A model generated the notes under the pieces. It saw only the letters and a program-made list of their open reading frames with translations, did no database searches and was not told where the DNA came from. Made by a program: the position numbers and the translations under genes. Positions 19,303 to 57,907 of a stretch of 64,000 nt of DNA are shown here, one piece after another. Source of the DNA: an uncultured Oscillospiraceae bacterium. GTDB lineage: Bacteria > Bacillota > Clostridia > Oscillospirales > Oscillospiraceae. The stretch covers positions 17,823 to 81,822 of the forward strand of contig CAMVRT010000008.1 in assembly GCA_947169975.1 (NCBI GenBank), given 5' to 3'. Position 1 is the first letter of the stretch; each line of letters opens with the position of its first letter.

Positions 19303-19309
19303 CCCTCAT

Positions 19310-40561: not shown

Positions 40562-40606
40562 AAAAAAAGCGAAAAAGATCCGGAGATCATTCGATCTCCG
40601 GATCTG
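40562..40606 (-). terminator. strong rho-independent terminator ending the 13-gene operon
   Basis: Minus strand: agatccggagatc-gaat-gatctccggatct followed by ttttcgcttttttt. Confidence 0.85.
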
Positions 40607-40619
40607 CGTTTATCGGATA

Positions 40620-41753
40620 TCAGCCGTACAGGAACTCCTGCAGGATCTTGGCATTGGCGGTGAAATCCACCGCGTAGAGGGAGCGGCCGCCCATACCCCG
40701 CATGCCGCCGTAGGTACCGGAGGCGGGGATGGTCATCTGCTCCAGGGTGACGCCCTGGAATTTGGGAACCAGCTCCAGGATCTCGCCCTTGGTCAGGTTG
40801 GTCATGACCAGAGGCAGCACCCGGTTGAGCGTGCTGTCCAGCTGAGCGGGATTGAGTCCCTTTGTCTGGTTGATGGCGGCCTGGATGACGGTGCGCTGGC
40901 GCTTGATGCGGGTCCAGTCGCTGTCGATCTTGCGGATCCGGGCATACTGCAGGGCAGTGAACCCGTACAGGTGGTTGGTACCCGCGGTAACGGGATGCTC
41001 GGGATCCATGTTGTTGAGGTAGTCGGCCTCGGCCTGGGTCAGGGTGATGTCCACGCCGCCGATGGCGTTGATGCCGGCGCGGAAGGTGCCGAAGTTCACG
41101 CGGACGTATTTATGTACGTCCACGCGGAAGCACTCCCGTACCTCCTGCATCATCAGGTCGGCGCCGCCGTAGCAGAAGGTATGAGTCAGCCAGTCCCACT
41201 GGCCCTTGTACTGACCGGACAGGATCGGCACGCCCATGCCGCGCTCCAGGCTGACCAGCTTGGCCCGGCCGGTGGACTTGTTCAGGGAGAGGATCATGCA
41301 GCTGTCGCCCCGGGCGAAGTTGCTGAAGCCCTCGGCGCGCTCGTCGGTGCCGATGAGCAGGATGTTGACGATGTTGTCGTCGTGCTTGATCTCCATGGTG
41401 GGAAGGGCGGTATAGGAAACGGACTCCGTGACCTCGATTCCCTCCTGCTCCATAGCCTCCTCCATCTCCTCCTGCTGCTTCTGCACGATGGGATCCTTGC
41501 CGTGGGCGATCTGGCGGTCCACCTTCTCGATGTGTTCCTGCTCCTCTTCCGCACTCTCGAAGTGCAGTCTTCCGTCGTAGGGATCATAGTGGATCTTGTC
41601 CAGCTTGGAATTGACATACAGGGCAATGGCTGCGGCGATGACCAGCAGCACGGCAAGGATGATCAGTACGATCTTCCAGCCCTTTTTCATCCGCCGTTTG
41701 GGTTTTTGGCTCCCCTTCTTTTCTGTGGGAGCGATTCTCGTACCTTTCTTCAC
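40620..41753 (-). CDS. LCP (LytR-CpsA-Psr) family wall-polymer ligase
   Basis: GTG start 41753 (AGGAG 7 nt upstream, 1 nt after the upstream stop). Motifs NILLIGTDER, RGDSCMILSLN, V.VNFGTF...INAIGGVDI and LQYARIR. It has an N-terminal TM segment. Confidence 0.85.
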   Translation of the reverse strand: MKKGTRIAPTEKKGSQKPKRRMKKGWKIVLIILAVLLVIAAAIALYVNSKLDKIHYDPYDGRLHFESAEEEQEHIEKVDRQIAHGKDPIVQKQQEEMEEAMEQEGIEVTESVSYTALPTMEIKHDDNIVNILLIGTDERAEGFSNFARGDSCMILSLNKSTGRAKLVSLERGMGVPILSGQYKGQWDWLTHTFCYGGADLMMQEVRECFRVDVHKYVRVNFGTFRAGINAIGGVDITLTQAEADYLNNMDPEHPVTAGTNHLYGFTALQYARIRKIDSDWTRIKRQRTVIQAAINQTKGLNPAQLDSTLNRVLPLVMTNLTKGEILELVPKFQGVTLEQMTIPASGTYGGMRGMGGRSLYAVDFTANAKILQEFLYG

Positions 41754-41754
41754 G

Positions 41755-42582
41755 TCATTTCTCCTTTCTGAACCGGTCAGCCTGCTCCAGCATCTTACCA
41801 TATGCCTTCTCGCCCCGGTTTTGCCAGGTATTGTAGTCGTAGGTGCCATGGCACAGGTCCTCCGCCAGCGCGATGAGGTCGCGGCGGGAGAGCATGGTGA
41901 TGGCGATGGGCTCGGCGCGGAAGATGGCCTCCACCGTCTCCGGGCGGAAATGCTCCGCCAGGCGGCGAAGCCCGTCGGCGATCTCCGGCCGCACGGTGAG
42001 GCCGCGGTAGGCCTCCTTGGCGGCGCTGCGCTTGACCCGGCCGTGGACGTAGCCGGTCAGCTTTTCGTAGCAGTCCAGCCCGCTGACGTCGTAGTAGAGC
42101 GCCGTGAGATAGTGTTCCATAGCCGCGTCGGCCTGTCCGCTGCGCTCCAGCAGCGCTGCCACGTCCAGATGGATATCACGCACGGCGATGAAGTTGTCGT
42201 CCTCCTTCATCCGGGGCAGCTTCCCCAGCAGCAGGGACGCCATGGTCTCCTCAAAGGACGCGCCGTCCTTCTTTTTCCGGTCGTATTCCGTCACGGACAC
42301 GTAGGGATCGGCCAGATCGAACAGCCGCAGGTCATCCTCCCGGATGGCCTGGCGCCCCCGGTCGGTGAGGTTCAGGCAGCCGTTCTCCCCTTTTTTGACA
42401 TAGCCCTGGCGGTGCATGCGGCGCAGATAGCCGTAGCAGTCCGACAGATCCAGCTCCCGCTGGAAGAAGGGCGGGAAATAGGCGGTCTGGAAGGTGGCGG
42501 GGTGATCCGCCACATAGCGCAGGAACACGGAACGGACATAGGCGTTCCAGTCCCTGCTTTTGTTGTCGCTGCGCTGCATCAT
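41755..42582 (-). CDS. hypothetical cytoplasmic protein (275 aa)
   Basis: Its ATG 42582 overlaps the stop of the upstream gene (ATGA). I recognise no family. The N-terminus (GYLRRMHRQGYVKKGENGCLNLTDRGRQAI) looks winged-helix-like. Confidence 0.5.
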   Translation of the reverse strand: MMQRSDNKSRDWNAYVRSVFLRYVADHPATFQTAYFPPFFQRELDLSDCYGYLRRMHRQGYVKKGENGCLNLTDRGRQAIREDDLRLFDLADPYVSVTEYDRKKKDGASFEETMASLLLGKLPRMKEDDNFIAVRDIHLDVAALLERSGQADAAMEHYLTALYYDVSGLDCYEKLTGYVHGRVKRSAAKEAYRGLTVRPEIADGLRRLAEHFRPETVEAIFRAEPIAITMLSRRDLIALAEDLCHGTYDYNTWQNRGEKAYGKMLEQADRFRKEK

Positions 42583-44288
42583 GGAGTCTCCCCCTTGGGC
42601 TCGGCGCTCTCGGCCTCGGAACTCCCGGGTGCGGCGCTCTCGGCCTCGGCGCTGAACACAGGCCGGAAATAGACGCTCTTTTTCTTCTCCCGCCGGCTGC
42701 GGCGCAGCAGATAGTAGGCGGCGGCGGTGGCAATGGCGCCCCATGCGCCCAGAGCGATGACGATGGGCCAGTTGGGAGCGTTCTTCTCCACCACACTGGG
42801 GATCAGCTGCACGGACAGCTCGTCATAGTCCTTGGTCTGGTAGGTGATCTCACCGGTGTCCGGGTTATATACGTAGAAGGTGCCCACGCCGGCCTCACTG
42901 CCGTAGAGCAGCTCGCTGCCCTCCTCCATCCGGATAAAGTGATCCCGGTCGACCTCCACGATGGACACGGGGTACAGCTTCCCGCTGGCCTGCTCATAGC
43001 GGTACCAGTGGGAGCCGCTGCCGTCGGCCTGACTGGTGAACTGGACCAGCAGCATCTGGCCGTCGGTGCTCTGGGCAGCGGAGACCTTTTCCCCGTTGAT
43101 GGTGATCTGCCCCACGGTGAAGGTGCCGGGCAGCACGGAGGTGTTGGGCCGGTCGGTAATGGAGTACAGCTCATCGTCCCAGATCCGCTCCCGGAAGGTG
43201 AGCACATGGACAACCACGGTGTACTCGGCATAGCGTCCGCCGCCGGCCACACGCACCTTGCGCACCACATCGGTGCTGCCCACGGTGCGCGGACCCTCGG
43301 CCTCCACCCGCGCCTCATGGCTGAGGGTGTCGCAGAGGATGCGGCAGGAGCGGTTCTCCTGATCCGCGGTGACGTACACGGTGTAGGAATAGATGTCCGG
43401 CGAGAAAGCGGGATGCAGCTCGCCGCACTCGATGGACAGATAGCTCAGCCGGATATCCACGCTGGTGGGCGTCACCGGCTGCACGGAGATGGGCTTCCAC
43501 CGGGCATACACGGTGTTGTTGCCGGTGACGGGCTTGCTGAAATCGAAGGCAATGGCGAGACCCGAATCGGTGAACCAGCCGTCGAAGGTATAGCCGTCGC
43601 GGGTGGGATCGGCCGGCCGGACAGGGGTGTTCCCCTCGGTGACAATCTGGTCGCTGACGGTGCTGCCGCCGTTGGTCTGGAAGGTGACGGTATAGGTGAC
43701 GTCGGGCTTGTCCTCCTCCCAGACGGCAAGGAGCGTGATGTTGGTCTCCACCGGCTCGCTGAAGTCGTAGCCCACGCCGTCCAGTTCCCAGCCCCGGAAG
43801 GTGTAGCCCTCCCGGACGGGATTGGTGGGCGGGATGGCCTTCTCTCCGCTGCGGATGGTCTGGGTAGCCACGGGGCTGCCGCCGGCGGAGTCGAAGGTGA
43901 CGGTGACGTCAACGGCCACAGGCGCCGCGTTTTCCGTCCACCCGGCGTAAACGGTCAGGTCGGCATAGACAGGCACGGAGAAATCAAAGGCGGTCTCCCG
44001 TCCGGCGTCGGCAAACCAGCCGTCAAAGACGTAGCCCTCCCGCACGGGATCGGCGGGCTGGGCGGCGGTTTCGCCCTCGGTGACGGACTGACTGTCCACA
44101 GCGCTGCCGCCGTCGGTGTCAAAGGTCACCGTGTATACGGCAGGCTCCGGCTCCGGTTCCGGCTGGGGTTCCGGCTCTTCGGTCTCCGTGCCGGGCTGCT
44201 CTGGCTCGGCGCCCGTGGCGTAGGCCACGGAGGCGGTGCCCAGCACCAGCATGAGCGCCAGCAGCAGAGCCATAATCTTCTTAAACAT
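42579..44288 (-). CDS. surface protein with four InlB-B/Listeria-Bacteroides (Flg_new) repeats, cadherin-like beta-sandwich and C-terminal TM anchor
   Basis: Has a signal peptide. There are four copies of VTF(D/Q)..GGS.V..Q.V..G......P.DP.R.GY.F.GW. LSYLSIECGELHPAFSPDIYSYTVYV is cadherin-like. The C-terminal WPIVIALGAWGAIATAAAYYLL is followed by RRSRREKKK. Confidence 0.75.
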   Translation of the reverse strand: MFKKIMALLLALMLVLGTASVAYATGAEPEQPGTETEEPEPQPEPEPEPAVYTVTFDTDGGSAVDSQSVTEGETAAQPADPVREGYVFDGWFADAGRETAFDFSVPVYADLTVYAGWTENAAPVAVDVTVTFDSAGGSPVATQTIRSGEKAIPPTNPVREGYTFRGWELDGVGYDFSEPVETNITLLAVWEEDKPDVTYTVTFQTNGGSTVSDQIVTEGNTPVRPADPTRDGYTFDGWFTDSGLAIAFDFSKPVTGNNTVYARWKPISVQPVTPTSVDIRLSYLSIECGELHPAFSPDIYSYTVYVTADQENRSCRILCDTLSHEARVEAEGPRTVGSTDVVRKVRVAGGGRYAEYTVVVHVLTFRERIWDDELYSITDRPNTSVLPGTFTVGQITINGEKVSAAQSTDGQMLLVQFTSQADGSGSHWYRYEQASGKLYPVSIVEVDRDHFIRMEEGSELLYGSEAGVGTFYVYNPDTGEITYQTKDYDELSVQLIPSVVEKNAPNWPIVIALGAWGAIATAAAYYLLRRSRREKKKSVYFRPVFSAEAESAAPGSSEAESAEPKGETP

Positions 44289-46242
44289 GGTCAGTTCTCC
44301 CTTTTAAGTCGCGTTTGCCAAGCAGATAGTCCTTGACCTCCCGGGGATACTCGGGATAGCGGTGCAGATCCTGATGGGTGTTGATCTCCAGGATCCGGAA
44401 ACCATCCGCCGTAATAACGATGTCAAAGCCCAGATACTCCATGGGCGTGAGATACGCGGTGACCTCACAGACCCGGCGGCAAACCAGCTCCCAGTTGGGC
44501 AGCGTGCCGCGGAGAGGGGCGCCGGAGTCGGGATGTACGTCACAGGGCCGGAACTCGTGGCCCACCAGCATCTCGGCGCCGTAGTACTCGCCGGTGTCGG
44601 CGTTGACCCGGGCCACGATGCCGCCGGTGGCCAGATTGTCGGTGTGTCCGGTGCTGCCGGAGGCGATGCGGAAATAGGCGTGCTCCACCCTGGGTCCGCT
44701 GCCCCGGTCGATGACCATGACGCGAATGCTGCAGGCCACCTTGTCGTAGATCTTCTTCAGCTCCGGGTGCATCTCCACGAACTCGGAGATGAGATAGGGC
44801 TTCTCCAGCCCCTGGATGCGCTGCCGGAACTCCTCGGCCGTCACGGTCTCGCCGTCGATGACGGGCTGATCGGTCTCGGTGTCCCAGCTCAGGGGCAGGA
44901 AGCCGTCGCCGTGGGAGGCGATGGCGGGCTTGGCCGCCAGCTTGCCCTTTTCACGCAGGCAGGTCAGCACGTCGTCCGCCGTGGCGGTGCCGCCCTCCGG
45001 GCGGAAGGGGTAGATGACGCCGTTCTCTGTGCGGAACCAGTAGGCCGGGAAGCAGTCCCGGAAGGGCGCCATGACGTAGTAGGTGGAAATTTTGTCCCAC
45101 AGCCACTTCTGATACTTGCCGTTGATGGGCCGCATCCGCTTGTAGTCGTAGTCGGAGAGCAGCTGCCGCCAGTTCTCCTCCGTCAGGCCGTACTGCCGGA
45201 TGCGGTAGGAGTAAAAGCCCCGCTGATGGGCCCATTTCTTCTCCGCGGCGGTGGTGAAGGTCAGCTTGTCGTCGTCCTTCAGGCCGCGAAGCCAGTTGCG
45301 GTACATGTAGTCCAGAAAGCCTCTGCGTTTGGCCCGCAGGGCGAAGATGTACTTGCCGATCCGGTGCAGGGCGCCGCCCTCGGCGCGTCTTTCCCGTCTG
45401 CGCCGCCGGAGCATCTCCTCCACGGCAGGGCAGCGGTCCTTCATCCATACCAGGTCGCGGCCCATATCCACCTGCCACAGGCGCAGTCCGTTTTCGCTCC
45501 GGATCACGGCCACGCCCAGATAGGGCGCCTCGGCGAAACGCCGGCCGATCTGTTTGGCAAGGGCCACGGCGTCGGCGGCCTCCGCCTCCGTCAGCGTGCG
45601 GATGATCCGTCCGCTGAAGAGGGCGCGGCTGTCCTTTTTGGCGCCGTGGTCGGCCAGATAGACGTAGGCCGCCTGGTGCTCCCCCGCCTCGCCGCGCACC
45701 AGCCCCACATGGAAGACGGCGCTGCCGTTCTCCCCGGCCGCGGGGATGTACTCGGTGATGAGGGTGTCCGCCGGCAGCTTGGCCAGCTTTTCCGCCAGTG
45801 CGGCGCTGTCCAGCTTCTGCCCGTCCAGCGTATAGCCCGCGCCGTCAGCGCGCAGCACCCGCTCCCGGCTGTCCAGCTCGTTTTTACCGGGCCGGACGGC
45901 GACGGCGCCGTATCGTCTGGCCAGCGCGGCCACGTCCTCCGGCGACAGGATGCGCTTTTGCGGATCGAACAGGGCGCGGATGACAGTCCTGCCGTCCTGC
46001 TTTGCCGCCACGCCGCAGATCCGGGGCAGCGTATCGCGCAGCTCCCACAGCACATGGTGGGTGGTCAGCAGGTCCTCAAAGAGCTTGTCCAGCTCCTTGT
46101 GGAGGGGCAACAGTCCCATGATCCGCCGGGCGTCCGGGTTGTCGATGATGCGCCGCGCGCGGAGGTACTCCCCCGCCGTGCGGTAGGAGAAGCCCCGCAG
46201 CACCAGAGCCGCGGTGGCGGCGGTCTTGAAAAGTCCGTTCAT
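44281..46242 (-). CDS. two-module sugar-transfer-associated ATP-grasp (ATPgrasp_ST-like) protein
   Basis: The C-terminal half (LLSDYDYKRMRPINGKYQKWLWDK..., HPDSGAPL, GFDIVITADGFRILEINTHQD) matches the ATPgrasp_ST pattern. The N-terminal half is a diverged copy. It overlaps the next gene by 8 nt. Confidence 0.65.
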   Translation of the reverse strand: MNGLFKTAATAALVLRGFSYRTAGEYLRARRIIDNPDARRIMGLLPLHKELDKLFEDLLTTHHVLWELRDTLPRICGVAAKQDGRTVIRALFDPQKRILSPEDVAALARRYGAVAVRPGKNELDSRERVLRADGAGYTLDGQKLDSAALAEKLAKLPADTLITEYIPAAGENGSAVFHVGLVRGEAGEHQAAYVYLADHGAKKDSRALFSGRIIRTLTEAEAADAVALAKQIGRRFAEAPYLGVAVIRSENGLRLWQVDMGRDLVWMKDRCPAVEEMLRRRRRERRAEGGALHRIGKYIFALRAKRRGFLDYMYRNWLRGLKDDDKLTFTTAAEKKWAHQRGFYSYRIRQYGLTEENWRQLLSDYDYKRMRPINGKYQKWLWDKISTYYVMAPFRDCFPAYWFRTENGVIYPFRPEGGTATADDVLTCLREKGKLAAKPAIASHGDGFLPLSWDTETDQPVIDGETVTAEEFRQRIQGLEKPYLISEFVEMHPELKKIYDKVACSIRVMVIDRGSGPRVEHAYFRIASGSTGHTDNLATGGIVARVNADTGEYYGAEMLVGHEFRPCDVHPDSGAPLRGTLPNWELVCRRVCEVTAYLTPMEYLGFDIVITADGFRILEINTHQDLHRYPEYPREVKDYLLGKRDLKGRTDHV

Positions 46243-46267
46243 GAAAGTATTGTCCGGCTGTCCTCCG

Positions 46268-48223: not shown

Positions 48224-48243
48224 GTGTTTTCCTCCGTCCTATG

Positions 48244-49410
48244 TCAGCAGAACTCCGGATAGAAGTTGTTGGACTCGGCCACGGTGTTCTTGGGTGCCGG
48301 ATCCAGCTTTCTGCCCTCCAGATGGAGGATCTTCTCCGGCTGGACCCAGGGGCGGTTCTGGATCTGGCTGGTCTCCTCGTGGGTGAGGTAGCCGTCATAG
48401 GTGACCAGACCGCGGCGCAGGAAGCCGTCACGGGCGCAGGCCTCGGCCACGCCGTTGTTGAGGATGCTGCGGATGTGCTTTTCCACAGAGGCGGCGTAGG
48501 CGATGGAGGTGGTGCGGGCGATGGCGCTGGGGATATTGCTGACGCAGTAGTGGACCACGCCCTCCTCGATATAGATGGGATCGTCCAGGGTGGTCTCGTG
48601 GAAGGTCTCGATGACGCCGTAGTCGTTGCTGATGTCCACGATGACGGAGCCGGGGTGCATGGTCTTGACCATATCCCGGGTGATGAGGAACTTGGTGTTG
48701 CTCTTGTCCCAGCGGACGCAGTTGACCACCATGTCCACCTTGGGCAGGATGTTCTTGATGTTATAAGTGTTGGAGATGATGGTGTTGACCTTGCCGTCGT
48801 ACTTGGAGCTGATGGCGCGGAGGTGTCCGATGTTGGTGGCAGCCACGGTGACCCATGCGCCCATGGACTGCAATACCTCGATGGCGGCCTTGCCCACGAT
48901 GCCGCAGCCCAGGATCAGCACCTTGATGCCGGGGGCGGTGCCCAGGCCGCTGACGAACTTGCCGCAGCCGCCGTTGAAGGTCATCATGGCGTGGAGTCCC
49001 AGCAGCACGCCGGCCTTGCCGGCTGCCTCGCAGTTGGGAGAGCCGTGGCGGTGGGTATCCTCGGCGGCGAAGGAGGTGACCTTCTTGGCCAGCAGGGCGT
49101 CCACCTCCTGGCGGTGAGCGGCGGGATGGACGCAGGTATAGACGATCTGGCCCGGGCGGAGCTTGTCGTACTCGGAGGGCTCGATCTCCTTGACCTTCAC
49201 CACCATGTCGCAGGTGTTGTAGATCTCGTCCTGAGTGGAGATGGCTGCGCCTACCTCCACATAGGCCTCGTCCGGGAAGCCGGCGGACTTGCCGGCGTCA
49301 TGCTCCACCAGCACCTCATGGCCGTCGTCCACAATGCCGGACACCTCGCCCGGGGTGAGGATCACGCGGTATTCGCCCTTCTTGATGTCTTTCAGTACGC
49401 CTAACTTCAT
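48244..49410 (-). CDS. alanine dehydrogenase/PNT-family NAD-dependent dehydrogenase (AlaDH-like)
   Basis: RBS AGGAGG. Has N-terminal G.YRV.LTPG, VVKVKE, VHPAA, ILGCGIVGKAA Rossmann motif, PGSVIVDIS.D and VHYCVSNIP. The protein is diverged from canonical Ald (371 aa), so substrate is uncertain. Confidence 0.78.
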   Translation of the reverse strand: MKLGVLKDIKKGEYRVILTPGEVSGIVDDGHEVLVEHDAGKSAGFPDEAYVEVGAAISTQDEIYNTCDMVVKVKEIEPSEYDKLRPGQIVYTCVHPAAHRQEVDALLAKKVTSFAAEDTHRHGSPNCEAAGKAGVLLGLHAMMTFNGGCGKFVSGLGTAPGIKVLILGCGIVGKAAIEVLQSMGAWVTVAATNIGHLRAISSKYDGKVNTIISNTYNIKNILPKVDMVVNCVRWDKSNTKFLITRDMVKTMHPGSVIVDISNDYGVIETFHETTLDDPIYIEEGVVHYCVSNIPSAIARTTSIAYAASVEKHIRSILNNGVAEACARDGFLRRGLVTYDGYLTHEETSQIQNRPWVQPEKILHLEGRKLDPAPKNTVAESNNFYPEFC

Positions 49411-49430
49411 GGTAAAACCTCCTGTTTTTT

Positions 49431-51596
49431 TCAGCTCTTTTTCCGCTCGATGACGTGGCGGAAAAACTCGTTCATTTCGTCGGTAAAGGTGGCCACCTTG
49501 TGCAGATCCTGATGGATGTTGATTTCGAGAATGGTAAAGCCCTCCTCGGTGATGGCCACGTCAAAGCCCAGATACTCCAGCTCGCAGAGGTAGCGGCAGA
49601 TGTCCAGCACGCCCCGGCGCACCATATCCCAGTGGGGCAGGAAGCCGGCAATGGGGGTGCCGGTGTCGGGGTGGTTGGGACAGGGATAGAAGACGTGATC
49701 CTTGATGGTCTCGGGCTGATAGAGCTCGCCGGTCTCCTTGTCCACCATGACGCAGATGCCGCCGTACCCCACGTTGTCGGTAAAACCGGTGCGGGAGGAG
49801 CCGATGCGCATGTAGGTCTGCATGATCCTGGGGTCATAGCCGTGGGCATTGACCACCATGATGCGGATGGTGTTGACGCTCTTGGCGTAGATCTCCTTGA
49901 GCTGGTGGTGCATCTCCAGATACTCGGTGACCACGTAGAAGGACTTGCGCTGGATGACGGTGTCCATCATCTCCTGCTCGGTAACGGCCTTGCCGTTCAT
50001 GAGGTAGGTGCCGTTGCCGTTTTCGTCGGTCTCATAGGCCAGGCAGTAGAAGCCGTCGCCGTGGGTGCCGGCGGAGGGCTTGAAGGCCAGCATCTTCTCC
50101 CGGCGCAGCAGGGCGAAGAGACCGTCAAAGTCCTCGCTGATGCCCTCGGGGCAGTCCCACATGCGCTTGAACTCCACCTTGCCGTCCCGCTTGAAGACGG
50201 ACAGGTAGTATTTGGGGATGTACTCCCTGAAGGGATCGAGGATATAGCGGAAGGTGGTCTTGTCGTTGACCCACTTCTGATAGTCGTTGTTGATGCGGTT
50301 GAGCCAGTGGTAGTCGTAGTCGGAGAGGAAGTTTTTGTAGTTCTCCTCGGTGAGGCCGTACTGGTAGCTGCGGTAGGACAGGAAGCCCCGCTTCCAGCAC
50401 CAGAGCTTCTTTTTCAGGCTGACGCCCTTGGTGTGGAGGAGATCGCTTTTGACGGACTGGTTCCACAGCTTCTGCATATACGGGCGGATGCCCTTGCGTC
50501 CGTGCTTTTTCGCCCAGCGGATAAACAGACGCTCCCGCATACCGGCCCAGTGCTGGGCAAAGGTGCGCTTGGTGAGCTTCCCGGCCTTGGCCTTCAGGTA
50601 GTCGTTGAGCTCCGGGTGGAAGGGGATGCCGGGCAGCACCGGCTTGGCGGAGAAGTAGAGGAAGGAGAAGGCGCTGTTCATCTGCAGGGCGATGGAGGCG
50701 GAGAAATAGGTCAGCTGCTTGAGCTGTCCGCAGATCTCCAGCATCTGCTTTTTGATGTTCTTCCAGGCGGGCACCGTCATCTCGCCCTGGGGAGCGGTAA
50801 AGGCGCCGGTCTCCAGATCCACGCTCATGATTTTGTGGATGCGCTCCCGGGTCATGGTATCGGTCCAGTAGAAGTTCATCATGGCCGACAGGATGGCAGG
50901 GCCGCCGTCCGTGTCGTTGGCCATCCAGAACTCCAGGGAGTGGTCGCAGCCGAACTCCGGGGTGAAGCGATAGTAGATATCCACATGCTCGGCGATGACG
51001 TAGTTGGCGGTCATGCGGCCGAAGATCCGGACAAAGTCGTTTCTGGTGGCGCTTCTGCCGTTGATGTAGAGCCGTCCGCCGATGCAGGTCATGTTATAGC
51101 GGGGGCTCTCGCTCTCCCAGTGAGCCGGCCGGGCCTCCAGATGTCCCGTCTCCCGCAGGAGGTCCATGACGTCGTCCACGGTGTACTCCCGGTCCTCCCG
51201 GTCCACGCGCAGGAACAGGGGCTTGCCGTCCCGGCGGATGACGCTGAAGAAGACCCGGCGGAAGAAGCGCTTATAGGGCGCCAGAACCCGCTCGGTGGTG
51301 ATGATATCGCTGATCCACTTGGACATGGAGCTGTTATAGGGCGAGAGGTTCATGTAGTCCCGATCGGTGATATAGTCGCAGTCCGGATGGTTCAGGAGAT
51401 CGTAGCGGCTGACGCTGCGGCAGAGGTAGCCCCTCTCGTGCAGCGCCTTGATGGTGGACTCATCGTAGACGCCCTTGTATTTGTGCAGATCGCTGCGGGT
51501 GGCCTTGTACCAGGAATTGCACATGGCGCGGCTGTAACCCCGCAGCATCATGGGCAGAACGGCTTTCTCCTTGCGGAGTCTTCGTTTCAGCTTCAT
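49431..51596 (-). CDS. two-module ATPgrasp_ST-like protein
   Basis: C-terminal half: FLSDYDYHWLNRINNDYQKWVNDK, HPDTGTPI and GFDVAITEEGFTILEINIHQD. The N-terminal half is a degenerate copy. It is a paralog of 44281-46242 (conserved N-terminus (V/M)LRG(F/Y)S). Confidence 0.65.
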   Translation of the reverse strand: MKLKRRLRKEKAVLPMMLRGYSRAMCNSWYKATRSDLHKYKGVYDESTIKALHERGYLCRSVSRYDLLNHPDCDYITDRDYMNLSPYNSSMSKWISDIITTERVLAPYKRFFRRVFFSVIRRDGKPLFLRVDREDREYTVDDVMDLLRETGHLEARPAHWESESPRYNMTCIGGRLYINGRSATRNDFVRIFGRMTANYVIAEHVDIYYRFTPEFGCDHSLEFWMANDTDGGPAILSAMMNFYWTDTMTRERIHKIMSVDLETGAFTAPQGEMTVPAWKNIKKQMLEICGQLKQLTYFSASIALQMNSAFSFLYFSAKPVLPGIPFHPELNDYLKAKAGKLTKRTFAQHWAGMRERLFIRWAKKHGRKGIRPYMQKLWNQSVKSDLLHTKGVSLKKKLWCWKRGFLSYRSYQYGLTEENYKNFLSDYDYHWLNRINNDYQKWVNDKTTFRYILDPFREYIPKYYLSVFKRDGKVEFKRMWDCPEGISEDFDGLFALLRREKMLAFKPSAGTHGDGFYCLAYETDENGNGTYLMNGKAVTEQEMMDTVIQRKSFYVVTEYLEMHHQLKEIYAKSVNTIRIMVVNAHGYDPRIMQTYMRIGSSRTGFTDNVGYGGICVMVDKETGELYQPETIKDHVFYPCPNHPDTGTPIAGFLPHWDMVRRGVLDICRYLCELEYLGFDVAITEEGFTILEINIHQDLHKVATFTDEMNEFFRHVIERKKS

Positions 51597-51648
51597 ACTG
51601 TGCTCCCACTCCCTTACTTTGTGCTGTCTATGTTTGTTTTATTAATTC

Positions 51649-52707
51649 TCATTTTTTGATGACGCCGTAGTGGCGGTAGAAATCGCCCAGCTCGCCGTGG
51701 CGCTGACCGCCCCAGAGCTGGATGATGTTGACGCCGGAGGAGGTGTTGGCCTCGATGATGCAGTTGGTGCCGTCGGGCAGCATCACCACGTCCCAGGCCA
51801 CGAAATGGAGGTACGGGAAATGCCCCACCAGAGCCAGGATCTCCTCCTTGAGGTGCTGCCAGCCGGGGATGGTCACCTCATCGAACCGGGTGCCGGAATC
51901 GGGGTGCGTCTCGTAGGTATTGCTGTTGTGGAGGGATTTGGCGTGACTGAGGCGTCCCGTCTCCAGGTCGATCCGGCACACCAGGCCGCCCTGGCTGGCG
52001 TTGTCCACCGGGATGGTGGCGCTGGTGCCCACGCGCTGCACGGCGAAGAAGACCTTGAACTGCCCGGTGGCGGGCTCCTTCATGGTGATGATGCGGATGG
52101 TGTTCACGGTCTTGTCGTAGAGGGTGTCGGCGTAGGCGTGCTGATGCACGGTCTCGGAGAGGTACCAGTCGTGGTTCTTCTCCAGGATGCGCCGCAGCGC
52201 GTTCTCCTCGGCGGCCCTGTTGTCCAGCAGCCATGTGCCGCCGTTCCATCCCATGCGGTGCACGCCGTTGCCCTTGCCCTTGCCGAAGGGCTTTAAGATG
52301 GCGTCGCCCTTTTCCCGGATCAGGGCCATGGCGCCGTCCACGGTGACGGGCCTGCCGTCCAGATCGGCCAGGAAGCCCTTGCTGTCCACCAGATACAGCT
52401 CCGGCACCCGGATGTACTGGCGCAGCACCTCGGTGGCCACCACCTTGTTGTTGAGCATGTAGTCGAAGGGCTCGTTGATGTAGCGGGAGCGGTACCAGTC
52501 GAACTCGGACAGGTACTCCCGTTTCTTCTTCATGTTCAGATCGTACAGGGCCCACTGGTCGGCCAGAAAGCCGCCGCAGATGTTGGCCTTGATCTTGTTG
52601 TAAAACGGAACCTTAAAGTGATCCTTGGCAAACACGATGCGCCGCCAGTACAGCACGAACAGCTTGAGCTTCTGTTCTGCGCGGCGGTACAGCTCAAATG
52701 CGTCCAC
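51649..52707 (-). CDS. single-module ATPgrasp_ST-like protein
   Basis: GTG start 52707 after GGGGAGAG. Motifs YLSEFDWYRSRYINEPFDYMLNNK, HPDSGTRF and VAWDVVMLPDGTNCIIEANTSSG. Confidence 0.65.
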   Translation of the reverse strand: MDAFELYRRAEQKLKLFVLYWRRIVFAKDHFKVPFYNKIKANICGGFLADQWALYDLNMKKKREYLSEFDWYRSRYINEPFDYMLNNKVVATEVLRQYIRVPELYLVDSKGFLADLDGRPVTVDGAMALIREKGDAILKPFGKGKGNGVHRMGWNGGTWLLDNRAAEENALRRILEKNHDWYLSETVHQHAYADTLYDKTVNTIRIITMKEPATGQFKVFFAVQRVGTSATIPVDNASQGGLVCRIDLETGRLSHAKSLHNSNTYETHPDSGTRFDEVTIPGWQHLKEEILALVGHFPYLHFVAWDVVMLPDGTNCIIEANTSSGVNIIQLWGGQRHGELGDFYRHYGVIKK

Positions 52708-53308
52708 AGGTCTCTCCCCTTTTCTCCAGAAATTCCTCGTATTCCTGCCAGGTGTTGAACCCGCAGGTGCCGTCGTGCAGCTGGGTAAAGGCCGGCCCGA
52801 TGCACGGATTGCCCATGGGCAACCCGGCGTAGGACTGGTAGACCTGCCAGCCCCGGCAGTCGGTGATCCGGCCGTCCAGGAAGGCGTCCTTTGCCCGGTC
52901 CACGTGGTTTTTCAGCAGTCGGCCGTCGTGGGCGATCACCGCCACGATGGAGCGCTCGTTGCCCACGAACCACAGCCCGTCGGTCTTTTTCCCGGCGATA
53001 TATGCCACGGCCTCGTCGGTGTAGCAGGTGTCACCGTAGAGGAAGCACACGTCGTCGGAGATCAGCTCCCGGGTGAACCGGTCGATCTCCAGGTGGTTCT
53101 CCAGCGGCTCGTGGCGCACCGCGCCGACGACCTCGTAGGCGGGATTGTGGGAGGTGATGAACACCTCCGCCTCGCCGTCGGCGGTGCGGATCTGGCGCAC
53201 CAGCCGCTCCAGCAGCGTTTCGCCGTCCACGGTGAGCAGGTGCTTGGGGATATGGCTCTGGGCGTGCCAGCGCTTCATGTCGCCGTCGGCCATGATGACG
53301 TATCTCAT
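52694..53308 (-). CDS. putative nucleotidyltransferase (IspD/TarI/LicC-like fold, atypical G-loop)
   Basis: MRYVIMADGDMKRW....IPKHLLTVDGETLLERL resembles sugar/polyol-phosphate cytidylyltransferases, but the GxGxR loop is replaced. It shows 4-nt and 14-nt overlaps with its neighbours. Confidence 0.5.
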   Translation of the reverse strand: MRYVIMADGDMKRWHAQSHIPKHLLTVDGETLLERLVRQIRTADGEAEVFITSHNPAYEVVGAVRHEPLENHLEIDRFTRELISDDVCFLYGDTCYTDEAVAYIAGKKTDGLWFVGNERSIVAVIAHDGRLLKNHVDRAKDAFLDGRITDCRGWQVYQSYAGLPMGNPCIGPAFTQLHDGTCGFNTWQEYEEFLEKRGETCGRI

Positions 53309-54450
53309 ACGGTTTCCAGTTCCTTTTCATTCACGTCCGCCCCGGTGATAAGGGCGGCGATGTTGCGGGTGGAGCTGCCCAGCTCCTCCGGCAGATAGCC
53401 CTGCCGGAAGCTTTGGAGCTCCTCCTCGGGATAGGCGCCGCTGTCGATGGCGGCGAACAGGTCTGCCGCCTTCTCAAAAGAGCAGCGGGGCATCATCTCC
53501 GCCGGATCCACGTTGAGTCCGTTGTCCCGGAGATATCGGTCGTGGTCAAATAAGTAGTAGTAGATGCGTTTATTCAGCACCGCCGCCTCCAGCGACAGGG
53601 ACGAGTAGTCGGTGATGACGATGTCGCAGCAGGACATCCACTCGAAGGTGTCGCCGTCTTCGTACCGCTTCACGGCCTCGGGCAGAGGCGCGGCAAACTT
53701 CTGGTTGGGGTGGAAGCGGCACACCAGGGCGTATTTGTCGCCGTCGAAGAGGGGCAGCAGCTCGTCCTGGGGGTTGATGTCGTAGGTGCGGTAGGTGGGG
53801 GCGTACAGCACCAGGGTCTTGCCCTTGAGCTCCGGGTGCTTCTCCTCCATGGCGCTGCGCAGATCCTCCTGCTGCAGCAGCCAGTCCAGCCGGGGCAGAC
53901 CGTAGTGGCGCAGATGCTCCGGCGTGGTGTCGAAGGAGGCCAGATAATAGGGCGTCCAGGCGGTGCCGCCGGAGATGATGTAGGTATAATTGCGGTGCAT
54001 TTTCAGCGCCCGGGCCAGCTTTCCGTTCCGGCCGGAGGGCGTGTCCAGGGTCTGGTAGCCGGATTTCTTGATCTTGCCCACGGAGTGCCAGATCTGCACC
54101 ACGGTCAGCTCCTTGCGGTGATGCAGCAGGGACACCACGGGCCAGTAGCCATCAATGATGCAGGAGCGTGACGTGGCCAGCAGGCTCATGCTGCGCAGCT
54201 GATCCAGAGCGAAAGAGATGAACTTGTCCCGCCCGGTGCGGAACTGATGGCACATGGTCACCTGCTCCATGTCCGGCGCGGTGCGCCCCAGCTCGGCCAT
54301 CAGCATCCGGAAGTCGATGGAGGGCTCGTCGCCCTGTCGGCTGAAGAAGCACACCCGGTTTTTCACGGGCGAGAGCTTCATCAGCGCGTAAAGCCCCTGC
54401 AGCAGCCAGGTTCCCACGCGGATGATCGCGCAGAGGATAGCGGTTTTCAT
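53305..54450 (-). CDS. CDP-glycerol/ribitol-type polyol-phosphate transferase (TagB/TagF family)
   Basis: Start ATG 54450. QIWHSVGKIKKSGY, LYAPTYR and DIVITDYSSLSLEAA match the TagB/F catalytic domain. Confidence 0.85.
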   Translation of the reverse strand: MKTAILCAIIRVGTWLLQGLYALMKLSPVKNRVCFFSRQGDEPSIDFRMLMAELGRTAPDMEQVTMCHQFRTGRDKFISFALDQLRSMSLLATSRSCIIDGYWPVVSLLHHRKELTVVQIWHSVGKIKKSGYQTLDTPSGRNGKLARALKMHRNYTYIISGGTAWTPYYLASFDTTPEHLRHYGLPRLDWLLQQEDLRSAMEEKHPELKGKTLVLYAPTYRTYDINPQDELLPLFDGDKYALVCRFHPNQKFAAPLPEAVKRYEDGDTFEWMSCCDIVITDYSSLSLEAAVLNKRIYYYLFDHDRYLRDNGLNVDPAEMMPRCSFEKAADLFAAIDSGAYPEEELQSFRQGYLPEELGSSTRNIAALITGADVNEKELETV

Positions 54451-54454
54451 GGTC

Positions 54455-55192
54455 TCATTCCTTGTCCAGCATTTTCTCGTAGAAGGCGGCGGCCTCATTC
54501 ACCGGGCCGTCGAACTGTATCCGTCCCTGTGACAGCACCACGCCCCGCTTGCACAGGCGCTTGGCCTCCGGCAGGGAGTGGGTGACGAAGAGGAAGGTGG
54601 CGCCGGTTTTCAGCACGTCGTCCACCTTGGCCCGGCACTTGCGGCGGAAGGTGGCGTCGCCCACGCTGAGCGCCTCGTCCACGATGAGGATCTCCGGCCG
54701 GATGGAGGCGTTGATGGCAAAACCCAGCCTCGCCTTCATGCCGCTGGAATAGGTGCGCACGGGCTGATCGATGTACTGATCCAGCTCGGCGAAGGCGATG
54801 ATCTCCCCCTCCAGCTGGCGGATCTCCTCCTTGCCCACGCCCAGGATCTCGCCCAGCAGGTAGATGTTTTCCCGTCCGGTGAGGCCGGGGTCGAAGCCGG
54901 CGGTCAGCTCCAGCAGGGCGCTGACGCGGCCGTTGACGCGGATGTAGCCGTCGGTGGGATAGGTGACGCCGGTGATCATCTTCAAAAGGGTGGATTTACC
55001 GGCGCCATTGCGGCCGAAGAGGGCCACGGCCTCGCCCCGGTAGATGGTCAGGGAGATGTTCTCGATGGCCCGCTTCTCCCCCACGCCGGCGCCCTGGAGC
55101 AGCATGCCCTTGAGCCGGGCCTTGTCGTTGGGAAAGAGGCGGAAGGTCTTTCTCACGTTTTTCAGTTGAATGGCAATGACTTTCTCGCTCAT
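54455..55192 (-). CDS. tagH: polymer-export ABC transporter ATP-binding protein (TagH-like)
   Basis: GRNGAGKST, YSSGMKARLGFA and ILIVDEALSVGD. The typical short TagH/KpsT N-terminal pattern is present. Confidence 0.9.
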   Translation of the reverse strand: MSEKVIAIQLKNVRKTFRLFPNDKARLKGMLLQGAGVGEKRAIENISLTIYRGEAVALFGRNGAGKSTLLKMITGVTYPTDGYIRVNGRVSALLELTAGFDPGLTGRENIYLLGEILGVGKEEIRQLEGEIIAFAELDQYIDQPVRTYSSGMKARLGFAINASIRPEILIVDEALSVGDATFRRKCRAKVDDVLKTGATFLFVTHSLPEAKRLCKRGVVLSQGRIQFDGPVNEAAAFYEKMLDKE

Positions 55193-55202
55193 GTGTTGCT
55201 CC

Positions 55203-56009
55203 TTACAGGATATCGGAGATGGAGCGGATGGTGCGGCGGTAGACCCACAGCGCCAGCGCCAGCAGCACCGCGTACACGATGCCGATGTTCAGCAGATACC
55301 GGGGATCCTCCCAGAACCAGATCTTGTAGACCAGGCTGTTGCGGTAGCCGTAGACCACGTAGGTGACGGGGTTGTAGCGCAGGAAGGACAGCAGGATGGC
55401 GTTCTTGACCCGCAGCACGTCGTACATGACGCCGGAGAGCCAGAAGAGGGCGGTGGTGACGGACTTCACCAGATTCATGAAGTCCTTGCTGATGACGCTC
55501 AGCATGCCGGCAAACAGGGACCAGGTGGTGAAGAAGAGGAACATCAGCAGGGCGTAGAAGGGCAGCTGCGCCCAGTAGATATCGGGCTTGTGGCCTGCGA
55601 TGAGGAAGATGGCCAGCACGATGGCGGTGAGAAACAGGTTCACCACGAAGTTGGACAGGCTGACGATGGTGGGGATGGTGGACACAGGGTATCGCACCTT
55701 TTTGACCAGGTAGCTGTACTTGCGGATGGAGCCGGCGCCGCCGGTAAAGGTGTTGGAGATATAGAACCAGGGCACGAAGCCGGAGATGAGCCACAGGAAG
55801 TAGGAGTAGTCCCCGATGGGTTTGCCGTGGCGCAGGCCGATGGAGAAGGTGACGTAGTAGATGAGGATGGTGATGGTGGGACGGATGACGGCCCAGGCCC
55901 ATCCCAGTGATGCGCCGCGGTAGGTGCGGACCAGATCGGACTTGGCCAGCTTCAGGATGTGGCCGGCGTACCGGGAGTGGTCCCGTATGATCTCTCGAAA
56001 TGTATTCAT
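55203..56009 (-). CDS. tagG: ABC-2 type polymer-export permease (TagG-like)
   Basis: Has 6 TM segments. Start set to ATG 56009 (AAGGAAG 7 nt upstream); the track ORF begins at a TTG 6 nt earlier. Confidence 0.8.
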   Translation of the reverse strand: MNTFREIIRDHSRYAGHILKLAKSDLVRTYRGASLGWAWAVIRPTITILIYYVTFSIGLRHGKPIGDYSYFLWLISGFVPWFYISNTFTGGAGSIRKYSYLVKKVRYPVSTIPTIVSLSNFVVNLFLTAIVLAIFLIAGHKPDIYWAQLPFYALLMFLFFTTWSLFAGMLSVISKDFMNLVKSVTTALFWLSGVMYDVLRVKNAILLSFLRYNPVTYVVYGYRNSLVYKIWFWEDPRYLLNIGIVYAVLLALALWVYRRTIRSISDIL

Positions 56010-56027
56010 TGGCAAACTTCCTTGTTC

Positions 56028-56714
56028 TTACCGCGCGCCCTTCTGGGATGCGGCGAAGGGAATGGTTTTCAGCAGGCAGTAAAGATCCAGCTTGATGGAT
56101 CTTGTGGCGGCGTACTCGGCGTCGATGCGGGCCTTCTCCTTGTAGGAGATGTCGTCCCGTCCCCGAATCTGGGCAAGGCCTGTGATGCCGGGCTTGCACG
56201 CGAACACGCCGTACTTCTCTCGCAGGGCGTTGAGCTTCTTCTCCGTCAGCACCACGGGGCGGAAGCCCACCAGCGACATCTCGCCCTTGAGCACATTGAT
56301 GAGCTGAGGCAGCTCGTCCAGACTGGTCTTGCGCAGAAACCGTCCGAAGGGCGTGATGTAGGAGTCGGCGTTCTTCAGCAGCGACGTGGCCACGTCGTGA
56401 GGCGCGTCGTAGACCATGGTGCGGAACTTGTAGATGGTGAACACCTTGCCGTGCTGTCCCACCCGCTCCTGCTTGATGAAGGTAGGCCCTTTGGTGCTGC
56501 ACCACACGCAGGCGCCGATGATGAGCATGGGGATGCAGGCCAGCAGCAGTCCCACCACGGCGGCGAACAGGTCGAAGGCCCGCTTCACGCAGGAATAGAG
56601 GCGCAGCCGTCGGGGATCCTGTGGCGGATACTCCGGCAGCGCAGGCTGATTCACTTCAGGCGCGGTCACCGCAGGGTTGACCTGCTCGTCCCGCTGGATC
56701 GTTGTCATTTCCAT
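56028..56714 (-). CDS. small polyprenyl-phosphate sugar-1-phosphate transferase (bacterial sugar transferase family, PglC/EpsL-like)
   Basis: KRAFDLFAAVVGLLL, ERVGQHGKVFTIYKFRTM, SLDELPQLINVLKGEMSLVG(F)RP, GITGLAQI. Confidence 0.9.
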   Translation of the reverse strand: MEMTTIQRDEQVNPAVTAPEVNQPALPEYPPQDPRRLRLYSCVKRAFDLFAAVVGLLLACIPMLIIGACVWCSTKGPTFIKQERVGQHGKVFTIYKFRTMVYDAPHDVATSLLKNADSYITPFGRFLRKTSLDELPQLINVLKGEMSLVGFRPVVLTEKKLNALREKYGVFACKPGITGLAQIRGRDDISYKEKARIDAEYAATRSIKLDLYCLLKTIPFAASQKGAR

Positions 56715-56800
56715 ATCTGTAACCCCCGTCCCGTTACCGGATCGCTCCGGTCCAATGGCCCTGATGGGCAGATGGGTGCAATCTACACATTATCTATAGC

Positions 56801-56829
56801 ATCATACCTTTTTTGCCGCCATTCGTCAA
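56801..56829 (-). promoter_or_regulatory. sigmaA-type promoter of the 13-gene operon
   Basis: On the minus strand: TTGACG, 17 nt, TATGAT. The leader is about 85 nt. Confidence 0.55.
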
Positions 56830-57069
56830 GCATAATCCCCATATTTGGTCTACTGTTTGACAGGAAACCTGTTTTTTCTCCCCTCTTCCCTGTGACAGTG
56901 CTCTTTCCCCCTGTCATTGCGAGGAGCGAAGGGTTGCGGCAATCCGTATTTCTCGTGCCGCCGCGCTCGCCGTGCTCCATTATATCAGCGCCGCCGTCGC
57001 CGGACAAGTGAACATCCTGCCAACTCCGCCTGATTTTTCCCGCCGCCGAAAGCAAAGCGAAAAGCAAAT

Positions 57070-57106
57070 CGAAAAGCAAAACAGCGGCCGCCGAACGACC
57101 GCTGTT
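57070..57106 (-). terminator. rho-independent terminator
   Basis: Minus strand: acagcggtcgttcggcggccgctgt followed by tttgcttttcgatttgcttt. Confidence 0.7.
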
Positions 57107-57125
57107 TTGGAATATTCTGTCAATT

Positions 57126-57827: not shown

Positions 57828-57873
57828 TGAGACCCCTCCCGATGCTTCGGTGTTTTCGCCTTTGTTATCTCCT

Positions 57874-57902: not shown

Positions 57903-57907
57903 GAACG

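Follow-up and report, generated by a model that had tools for sequence, protein, structure and literature searches.

We analyzed a 13-gene operon (g1 to g13, minus strand) in a 64,000-nucleotide (nt) stretch of contig CAMVRT010000008.1 (assembly GCA_947169975.1) from an uncultured Oscillospiraceae bacterium; the whole stretch is called the window, and all positions below refer to it. The reading that we favor, with modest confidence, is that the operon encodes an ATP-binding cassette (ABC)-dependent pathway for a peptidoglycan-attached wall polymer whose distinctive part is built by amide ligases, not by glycosyltransferases. The product is probably a peptide-bearing cell-wall polymer not previously studied, and amino acids or opines are probably attached to it through amide bonds, without the help of Dlt.

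Gene content and limits of the operon

Recomputation of open reading frames (ORFs) gave 13 consecutive minus-strand ORFs from 56714 to 40620, and all 13 products were searched against profiles with Pfam gathering thresholds and NCBIfam equivalog cut-offs. The genes are as follows (aa, amino acids; AlaDH, alanine dehydrogenase):

56028..56714, minus strand: g1, small monotopic phosphoglycosyl transferase, 228 aa (Bac_transf, PF02397, 4.7e-58)
55203..56015, minus strand: g2, ABC-2 permease, TagG/Wzm-like (ABC2_membrane, PF01061, 2.2e-15)
54455..55192, minus strand: g3, ABC ATPase, TagH/Wzt-like (ABC_tran, PF00005, 1.5e-22)
53305..54450, minus strand: g4, TagB/F-family phosphotransferase (Glyphos_transf, PF04464, 5.6e-42, model positions 12-365 of 367)
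52694..53308, minus strand: g5, divergent nucleotidyltransferase, 204 aa (from its predicted fold)
51649..52707, minus strand: g6, single-domain ATPgrasp_ST ligase, 352 aa (PF14397, 4.3e-38)
49431..51596, minus strand: g7, tandem ATPgrasp_ST protein, 721 aa (PF14397, 3e-35, residues 435-699 only)
48244..49410, minus strand: g8, AlaDH-family reductive aminase of a distinct subfamily (AlaDh_PNT_N and AlaDh_PNT_C)
46268..48223, minus strand: g9, MurF-like amide ligase with a C-terminal BspA-type LRR_5 domain, 651 aa (profile matches)
44281..46242, minus strand: g10, second tandem ATPgrasp_ST protein, 653 aa (PF14397, 3e-28, residues 428-626)
42579..44288, minus strand: g11, surface protein with a signal peptide, InlB-B/Flg_new repeats, a C-terminal membrane anchor, and a short charged tail
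41755..42582, minus strand: g12, cytoplasmic protein, 275 aa (ORF)
40620..41753, minus strand: g13, LCP-family polymer-to-peptidoglycan ligase with an N-terminal membrane anchor (LytR_cpsA_psr, PF03816, 1.3e-29)

Successive spacings from g1 to g13 are +12, +10, +4, -4, -14, +52, +20, +20, +25, -8, -4, and +1 nt, so that g4 and g5 overlap by 4 nt and g5 and g6 by 14 nt; the 13 genes, their coordinates, their overlaps, and the range of -14 to +52 nt came out identical to those of an initial annotation made from the sequence alone. G+C content at third codon positions is 0.82-0.91 across all 13 ORFs, which are therefore taken to be real genes of this 62% GC window, and the plus-strand ORFs that overlap the operon are by-products of the high GC. 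An origin by horizontal transfer was rejected, operon GC (0.60-0.66) being like that of the rest of the window. Two starts are tentative: that of g4 was placed at 54450, not at 54498, to which the ORF is open, with the 381-aa orthologue in locus L001 (below) as the guide, and the ORF of g13 is open to 41849. The following signals flank the genes:

56801..56829, minus strand: sigma-70-like promoter candidate, TTGACG-17-TATGAT (consensus scan, 10/12 hexamer positions match)
56979..57007, minus strand: second promoter-like site, TTGTCC-17-TATAAT with TG (consensus scan)
57077..57109, minus strand: intrinsic-terminator-like hairpin closing the preceding gene (15 pairs, 8 GC, T-rich tail)
40576..40605, minus strand: intrinsic terminator, 14 nt past the g13 stop codon (13 pairs, 7 GC, T-run)

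The consensus scan thus recovered both the TTGACG-17-TATGAT promoter and the strong downstream terminator described before, and the single compact unit proposed there is bounded by terminators on both sides. The whole region holds 7 promoter-like sites vs. 3.7 +/- 2.0 in shuffled sequence, so the operon promoter is a consensus match and not proof. The second promoter site and the terminator at 57077-57109, both predicted signals that the initial annotation did not list, mark the upstream limit of the unit. No Rfam element was found when the leader region of ~360 nt was searched for a riboswitch. The gene at 57126-57932 (minus strand) ends at the strong terminator 57077-57109; neither its product nor that of 58001-58717 (minus strand), both directly upstream of the operon, matches any significant Pfam or NCBIfam family (the latter scores 30 bits against TIGR03066, cut-off 93).

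The profile searches upheld nearly all of the initial domain assignments, including the ATP-grasp and Mur-ligase folds. Every operon enzyme scores under the cut-off of any named NCBIfam equivalog, and by these scores the enzymes are family members, not orthologues of characterized enzymes. Among the 13 products, no match to a Leloir glycosyltransferase, TagO, TagA, TagD, TarI, or Dlt was found in Pfam or NCBIfam, and the previously noted absence of a glycosyltransferase, TagO, TagA, TagD, and Dlt holds for all of them.

The genes for initiation, export, and attachment fit an ABC-dependent wall polymer. g1 aligns only with the C-terminal catalytic part of WbaP/WcaJ models and carries 'SLDELPQ', which we take to be the Asp-Glu dyad known from PglC; it is predicted to prime undecaprenyl phosphate with a sugar-1-phosphate. 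TagO is missing, as initially stated, and initiation is nonetheless present, the small Bac_transf enzyme replacing TagO. The permease g2 weakly matches a Wzm galactan exporter model, and g3, which has no C-terminal carbohydrate-binding extension, has teichoic-acid export ATPase models as its best NCBIfam matches (217 and 195 bits, both under cut-off). g13 scores 88.6 bits against the LCP domain model TIGR00350 (cut-off 62.3). g3 and g13 stay under the TagH and TagU equivalog cut-offs, and the combination of TagG/TagH with LCP is present at the family level; with the TagB/F-family transferase g4, this is the ABC-dependent wall-polymer logic that had been recognized initially. A membrane-bound PglF/CapD-type UDP-GlcNAc 4,6-dehydratase (17186-19309, minus strand; Polysacc_synt_2, 1.4e-112), 37 kb from the operon, could supply the sugar donor for g1.

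g4 is a clear Glyphos_transf protein (144 bits, cut-off 22.1), and its WH, YAPTYR, and HP motifs are invariant among the orthologues of six loci. g5 matches NTP_transf_3 below threshold (E = 2e-3, 18.6 bits, cut-off 27), has no match in a PDB sequence search, and belongs to a tight set of 196-205-aa proteins (242 matches). Its AlphaFold2 model (predicted local distance difference test, pLDDT, 90.6) resembles MurU, RmlA, PntC, LicC, IspD, and MobA, the top Foldseek matches (E 1e-6 to 1e-4; template modeling score 0.55-0.66), and g5 is therefore considered a divergent nucleotidyltransferase, which is predicted to supply a nucleotide-activated donor for g4. Of the TarI/IspD-like identity first given to g5, the nucleotidyltransferase fold is supported as a prediction; the sequence match is sub-threshold and no TarI family was passed. 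These two genes bear on the possibility that the product is an ordinary polyol-phosphate teichoic acid, with g5 making CDP-glycerol or CDP-ribitol, g4 acting as the polymerase, the ligases adding only simple amino-acid decorations, g8 a plain AlaDH that supplies L-Ala, and neither an opine nor a peptide backbone, which we regard as unlikely though by no means negligible. It agrees with the Glyphos_transf assignment of g4, whose best NCBIfam matches are TarB and TarL (102, 90, and 38 bits against the TarB, TarL, and TarF equivalogs; cut-offs 500, 1000, and 550), but g5 passes no TagD, TarD, or TarI cut-off.

Recurrence of the gene combination

The conservation of the neighborhood, a point raised in the initial annotation, is borne out: the combination recurs on contigs of Oscillospiraceae metagenome-assembled genomes (MAGs), on distant Clostridia contigs, and in Pasteurella atlantica. 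The loci are:

L001/L002: Oscillospiraceae MAG contigs with g9 85% identical; the same 13 genes
L092: far more distant contig (P0323, 47% identical to g7) with the order g2-g3-g4-g5-g6-g7-g8-g10-g9; after the g9 homologue, an MBL-fold gene, another ATPgrasp_ST gene, an Ig-like surface protein, and LCP
L087/L088: minimal version, with TagF-like, ATPgrasp_ST, g5-like, tandem ATPgrasp_ST, ABC-2 permease, ATPase, and LCP genes
L089: g4-g5-g6, a called 57-aa ORF, and tandem ATPgrasp_ST
L090: the core plus Bac_transf, AlaDH-like, g11-like, and g12-like genes; Mur ligase missing
L003: Pasteurella atlantica (Gram-negative), homologues of g1, g3, g4, g5, g6, g7, and g10, also two Mur-LRR genes, an amino-acid permease, and an Octopine_DH-family gene, in a capsule-like cluster
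L091: Butyrivibrio sp. AE2005, g7-type gene, Octopine_DH, TupA-type ATP-grasp, Ddl, PGA_cap-Mur-LRR, and ABC-2 exporter, among GT2 genes
L093: g7-type gene and Octopine_DH only, beside a glutamate symporter and an amidohydrolase; a PGA_cap-Mur gene nearby

A TagF-like gene accompanies the ligases in every distinct TagF-bearing locus type (window/L001/L002, L003, L087/L088, L089, L090, and L092). The g5 homologue adjoins it in the window, L001/L002, L003, L089, and L092, lies one gene away in L087/L088 (where the homologue, P0200, is present on 254 contigs), and is not adjacent in L090. TagF-type versions without a glycosyltransferase recur (L001/L002, L087/L088, L090, and L092). Since Butyrivibrio sp. 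AE2005 carries the same ligase module among GT2 genes, the ligase set is read as an add-on peptide module, and the initial statement that ligases take the place of glycosyltransferases was overstated in view of this GT2-linked locus. From these gene orders we distinguish what appears to be a core polymer module (g2 to g6 and a tandem ATP-grasp protein, with LCP in Gram-positives) from a putative accessory building-block module (g7 and the dehydrogenase, often with a Mur-type ligase), which is also found away from any exporter. In L089, a phage holin and an Amidase_2 endolysin (6501-7899) lie just upstream of the TagF-like, g5, and ATP-grasp genes.

The amide ligases and the dehydrogenase

PF14397, which Pfam names 'Sugar-transfer associated ATP-grasp', matches g6, g7, and g10 with 132, 122, and 99 bits (gathering threshold 31.4). 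g6 keeps the Lys, the Gly loop, the Arg, DN..GG, and the D/E/N Mg2+ residues. The C-terminal halves of the tandem proteins (g7C and g10C) keep the ATP-grasp catalytic residues, and the N-terminal halves (g7N and g10N) do not: the Gly-rich loop, two Arg, DN..GG, and the Asp/Glu/Asn Mg2+ ligands are gone, g7N being without HGDG, R578, R597, D679, E691, and N693. The two halves of g7 are related (g7N vs. g7C: BLASTP, 7e-19), and N-halves match a C-half hidden Markov model at 1e-29 to 1e-42 (g10N more weakly, 7e-9); g10C is 41% identical to g7C, and the AlphaFold2 model of g7 (pLDDT 89.9, predicted template modeling score 0.89) has the same secondary-structure order twice. Among 29 full-length g7-type members, 120 positions are >=93% conserved in the C-half vs. 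34 in the N-half. We predict three competent ATP-grasp domains (g6, g7C, and g10C); the N-halves of g7 and g10 are, judging by these residues, degenerate duplicates, that of g10 strongly so, and they probably serve as built-in pseudo-dimer partners. Five ATP-grasp modules had been counted initially, of which three appear competent and two are degenerate N-half copies; the doubling of g7 and g10 described with them is real, with Pfam detecting one ATPgrasp_ST domain in each, in the C-half. A PDB sequence search with g6 gave no match, and a viral-contig scan for the tandem ATP-grasp family found no relative.

The Foldseek matches of g7 are amino-acid and peptide ligases (PsnB, Ddl, ArgX/LysX, RimK, TTL, and DcsG). 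PsnB, RimK, LysX/ArgX, and TTL among them would suit a different function, in which the ligases modify a protein, e.g., g11, as do RimK, TTL, and the Klebsiella CfmP system, and a TupA-like ATP-grasp protein has been reported to act on fimbriae, not on polysaccharide (PMC12632600). A surface protein is indeed encoded in the operon, in L090, and in L092. We nevertheless consider protein modification the least probable of the explanations considered here: g11 is exported and the ligases are cytoplasmic and require ATP, the ligases occur without g11-like genes in L087, L089, and Pasteurella, and the priming transferase, the TagF-like enzyme, and LCP would play no part.

g11 itself matches Flg_new (PF09479, three times, 1.5e-55) and Flg_new_2 (PF18998, 2.6e-10); its counterpart in L090 is weak (125 bits), and Ig-like surface proteins occupy the corresponding position in L092. 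For g12, neither Pfam nor NCBIfam gave a match; it belongs to a small family (59 representative clusters among 1.84 billion proteins), with a homologue in L090 between the ABC ATPase and the TagF-like gene (132 bits); a distant member, P0408, has MarR-type wHTH and SAP domains, and other fusions are uninformative.

g9 matches Mur_ligase_M (1.7e-31), Mur_ligase_C (2e-8), and LRR_5 (2.2e-25), and its closest solved enzyme is MurF 4cvk (7e-31). The P-loop (G121-T128), E172, H202, K216, N295/N298, and R329 show no variation across 34 family members, so g9 should, from these residues, be an active ATP-dependent amide ligase. The sequence has no signal peptide, so g9 is of cytoplasmic type despite LRR_5, a domain usual on surface proteins. 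The likeness to MurF would also fit a remodeling of peptidoglycan precursors by the MurF-like and ATP-grasp enzymes, e.g., to furnish the stem peptide with a different terminus, as would the Ddl gene directly upstream of the PGA_cap-Mur-LRR gene in Butyrivibrio and the Mur-LRR genes that stand alone (L005 and a second copy in the window, described below). This we rate as highly improbable, because g9 falls outside MurF (209 bits against the murF model TIGR01143, cut-off 288.6) and lacks the N-terminal domain PF01225 that the ordinary 450-aa MurF of related taxa have, because its gene shares the operon with those for a lipid-carrier primer, an exporter, and an LCP ligase, and because Pasteurella holds two Mur-LRR copies inside a capsule-like cluster.

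The Mur-LRR_5 fusion family comprises at least ~75 clusters at 90% identity. An exact-sequence look-up of g9 gave no match, and a genome-contig scan with the Mur-LRR alignment, by a generic Mur P-loop pattern, listed 80 ordinary MurF loci, none with other operon genes. Fusion to ATP-grasp also occurs: P0028 (L006 5249-8302, 1017 aa) has a Mur ligase, LRR_5, and ATPgrasp_ST in one protein, and ATPgrasp_ST-LRR_5 fusions of ~1000 aa are P0348 and P0359-P0361. Because both kinds of fusion recur, LRR_5 is taken as a recurrent part of cytoplasmic ligase machinery. Some Mur-LRR_5 variants add a PGA_cap (CapA-type) domain (~1050-1100 aa), and many g9 homologues of 920-1100 aa have PGA_cap and the Mur ligase with or without LRR_5. 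Such PGA_cap-Mur genes (L004 10001-13282, after MBOAT and an Fn3/SaeA-like gene; L091 15267-18383, after Ddl; and L093 16796-19552) look like a different, also uncharacterized, system. The window carries a second Mur ligase-LRR_5 fusion 20 kb from the operon (24283-26301, plus strand; 672 aa, 38% identical to g9; 236 bits against the murF model, under cut-off), directly preceded by a PatB-family C-S lyase gene (22960-24261, plus strand; 421 bits, cut-off 340).

The dehydrogenase g8 lies outside the L-alanine dehydrogenase equivalog TIGR00518 (277 bits against a cut-off of 391.85, 115 bits short). Aligned with canonical AlaDH, g8 and four cluster-linked orthologues show three shared departures: the substrate loop LPLLxPMSEVAGR has lost 6 residues and is rewritten in sequence, the 'PGAKAPKL' and 'DQGG' motifs are altered, and the C terminus is extended by ~25 residues. 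The catalytic residues R15, K74, H95, and D263 are all present, and g8 therefore likely still carries out reductive amination. Directly after the g7-type gene comes, in each of the eight distinct loci, a gene for a reductive aminase. This enzyme is AlaDH-like in the window, L001, L006, L090, and L092 and of the Octopine_DH family in L003, L091, and L093. Carboxyethyl-ornithine synthase and saccharopine dehydrogenase belong to the AlaDH family, whereas opines are the products of the octopine-DH family; what the two families have in common is that an amine is condensed with a 2-keto acid. On the strength of this swap and shared chemistry, we propose tentatively, and with rather more doubt than confidence, that g8 is an N-carboxyalkyl amino acid synthase whose opine would be used by the adjacent g7 ligase. 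The amino-acid-forming dehydrogenase of the initial annotation therefore stands as an AlaDH-family enzyme and is probably not a plain AlaDH, given the score, the loop deletion, and the octopine-DH replacement.

A plain AlaDH is what the ordinary teichoic acid introduced above would call for. The four kept residues and the best solved relatives of g8, alanine dehydrogenases (1e-62), are in its favor, as is the general prediction that ATPgrasp_ST/TupA-type enzymes are amino-acid decorators (PMC12632600). Against it stand the shortfall of g8 under the AlaDH cut-off with its conserved active-site-loop deletion, the Octopine_DH-family genes at the g8 position in three loci, and the ligases themselves, three ligase domains and a MurF-like ligase exceeding the needs of single decorations.

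In other bacteria, soluble opine metallophores are products of octopine-DH-family enzymes (staphylopine, CntM), and the ligase and dehydrogenase genes of the operon might likewise make a soluble small molecule (e.g., an opine-type peptide or a metallophore-like compound) exported by the ABC transporter, with the wall-polymer genes as mere neighbors. The g7-Octopine_DH pair of L093, beside a glutamate symporter and an amidohydrolase and without TagF-like or ABC-2 genes, and the amino-acid permease within the Pasteurella cluster are compatible with this. The transporter is of the ABC-2/TagGH-Wzm/Wzt type, however; g4, g5, and g6 overlap and the TagF-like gene travels with the ligases; and LCP and the priming transferase share the operon, so that we find a soluble product very unlikely.

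Proposed pathway, known systems, and other features of the window

The favored pathway, from g1 to peptidoglycan, would run in four steps. First, by family-level assignment, g1 would load a sugar-1-phosphate onto undecaprenyl phosphate. Second, again at the family level, g5 would nucleotide-activate a phosphorylated unit that g4 would transfer as a phosphodiester, once or repeatedly. Third, g6, g7C, g10C, and g9 may, still in the cytoplasm, add amino acids or short peptides; an opine would probably be among the building blocks, with g8 condensing a 2-keto acid and an amine to form it, and its extra carboxylate could be the handle for the neighboring g7 ligase. Fourth, g2 and g3 would, as their families suggest, carry the lipid-linked product out of the cell, and g13, the LCP enzyme, would ligate it to peptidoglycan. 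A stronger form of this pathway, which we think quite unlikely, is a glycosyltransferase-free 'peptido-teichoic acid': a nucleotide-activated unit bearing phosphate would be built up in the cytoplasm on an opine handle, by the MurF-like and ATP-grasp ligases and much as the Park nucleotide is, followed by TagF-like polymerization through phosphodiesters, export, and LCP ligation. By analogy, the opine would in that case be a carboxylate handle like the lactyl group of muramic acid, a supposition to be held just as loosely. If true, wall polymers would gain a new chemical class, one that is widespread among gut Clostridia and also occurs in a single member of the Pasteurellaceae.

Several points weigh against the pathway that we favor. 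The polymer chemistry is read entirely from genes, and the case for co-transcription of g1 to g13 consists solely of their spacing and predicted signals. g5 is too divergent for a nucleotide or phosphate substrate to be assigned. g8, retaining all four AlaDH catalytic residues, could merely supply L-alanine, and the AlaDH/octopine-DH swap is suggestive of an opine and not proof of one. The product of g7 and the dehydrogenase need not be polymer-bound, because the pair in L093 has no exporter or TagF-like gene. The LRR_5 domain, g11, and g12 are left without a role in the scheme, and the sample of ~10 independent loci is small.

The operon resembles the Tag/Tar teichoic-acid systems of Bacillus subtilis and Staphylococcus aureus in its TagB/F-family enzyme, TagG/H-type ABC-2 exporter, and LCP ligase, in the predicted nucleotidyltransferase beside the TagF-like gene, and in the predicted order of events, with assembly on a lipid carrier in the cytoplasm before export. 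It differs in having no TagO, TagA, or recognizable TagD/TarI, with Bac_transf priming instead; in the lack of Dlt genes, none of which was found in the window; and in the addition of three ATP-grasp ligases predicted to be active, a MurF-like-LRR fusion, and an AlaDH-like enzyme.

Cytoplasmic ATP-grasp enzymes of surface-polymer loci that add amines or amino acids to polymer carboxylates include those for glucuronamide formation in the capsule of Campylobacter jejuni HS:2 (PMC11800379, PMC11800397), TupA in the teichuronopeptide of Bacillus halodurans (PMC8153356), and WemR-type enzymes (PMC12632600). In those systems the decorated glycan comes from glycosyltransferases and a single ligase is usual, whereas the operon has no glycosyltransferase and its ligases are ATPgrasp_ST proteins with no solved structure detectable by sequence, two of them tandem with a dead N-copy. 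The addition of amino acids to surface polysaccharides by ATPgrasp_ST/TupA-type ligases is a prediction attributed to Iyer et al. 2009 in PMC12632600, so the general idea of such decoration in the initial annotation is, on that attribution, not new.

Mur ligases are paired with ATP-grasp enzymes in pseudomurein clusters (PMC11915815), and like murein and pseudomurein synthesis the operon has a MurF-like ligase and ATP-grasp amino-acid ligases; Ddl also precedes the Mur-type gene in the Butyrivibrio locus. Unlike murein enzymes, g9 is under all Mur equivalog cut-offs, lacks PF01225, carries LRR_5, and lies in an exporter/LCP operon and not in a dcw cluster. CapB/PgsB and cyanophycin synthetase are likewise Mur-ligase-fold makers of amide-linked poly-amino-acids (cyanophycin synthetase being of ATP-grasp fold as well), and the fusion of many g9 homologues to a CapA-type PGA_cap domain is a further likeness. 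CapB-type poly-gamma-glutamate synthesis was rejected, the operon having no CapC, CapA, or PGA_cap domain, and so was cyanophycin synthesis (39 bits against TIGR02068, cut-off 850; domains on separate proteins); P0028 differs from cyanophycin synthetase in domain order and family.

Opine amides are known in surface glycans: alanopine occurs in Providencia alcalifaciens O35, and P. rustigianii O14 has N-epsilon-carboxyethyl-lysine (PMC10609480). These O-antigens share with the proposed product N-(1-carboxyethyl) amino acids amide-linked in a bacterial surface polymer, but are Gram-negative and sugar-based, and the tie to the operon genes is one that we infer. A literature search found no report of enzymes making the Providencia opine substituents, and, in the papers that it covered, no description of this gene combination, of the Mur-LRR fusion, or of an experimental study of ATPgrasp_ST, in agreement with the initial remark that no characterized system has this composition. 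As new we rate, from the predicted gene functions, an ABC-dependent wall-polymer pathway with a conserved, uncharacterized amide-ligase/opine module.

Oscillospiraceae, Lachnospiraceae, and their relatives are abundant in the gut, and their wall polymers, which influence phage susceptibility, immune recognition, and colonization, are almost unstudied. The recurrent module combines ATPgrasp_ST ligases and an ABC-2 exporter with a TagF-like enzyme and a divergent nucleotidyltransferase; LCP may be present or absent, and a tandem ATP-grasp gene with a reductive aminase and a MurF-like-LRR ligase are often added. The MurF-like-LRR_5 ligases, the ATP-grasp pseudo-dimers with a dead N-copy, and the AlaDH subfamily with a remodeled substrate loop are targets for enzymology, and the question is directly testable because Butyrivibrio sp. 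AE2005 and Pasteurella atlantica, which carry related loci, are in culture.

Directly past the operon terminator lie genes for an extracytoplasmic function (ECF) sigma factor (39814-40428) and an RsgI-like anti-sigma factor (38345-39817), together at 38345-40428 (minus strand), and the same pair comes after the operon in L001. A second ECF sigma/anti-sigma pair is found at 31722-33997 (minus strand), the partner being a 649-aa protein with LRR_5. An 893-aa surface protein at 28904-31585 (minus strand) has three BspA-type LRR_5 stretches and immunoglobulin-like domains, and a clostripain-family (C11) peptidase of 848 aa is encoded at 20137-22683 (minus strand). A flavin mononucleotide (FMN) riboswitch at 9412-9532 (plus strand; 107 bits, gathering score 66) precedes the gene for the S-component of an energy-coupling factor transporter, whose true start lies downstream of 9430 because the listed ORF start, 9430, falls inside the FMN aptamer.

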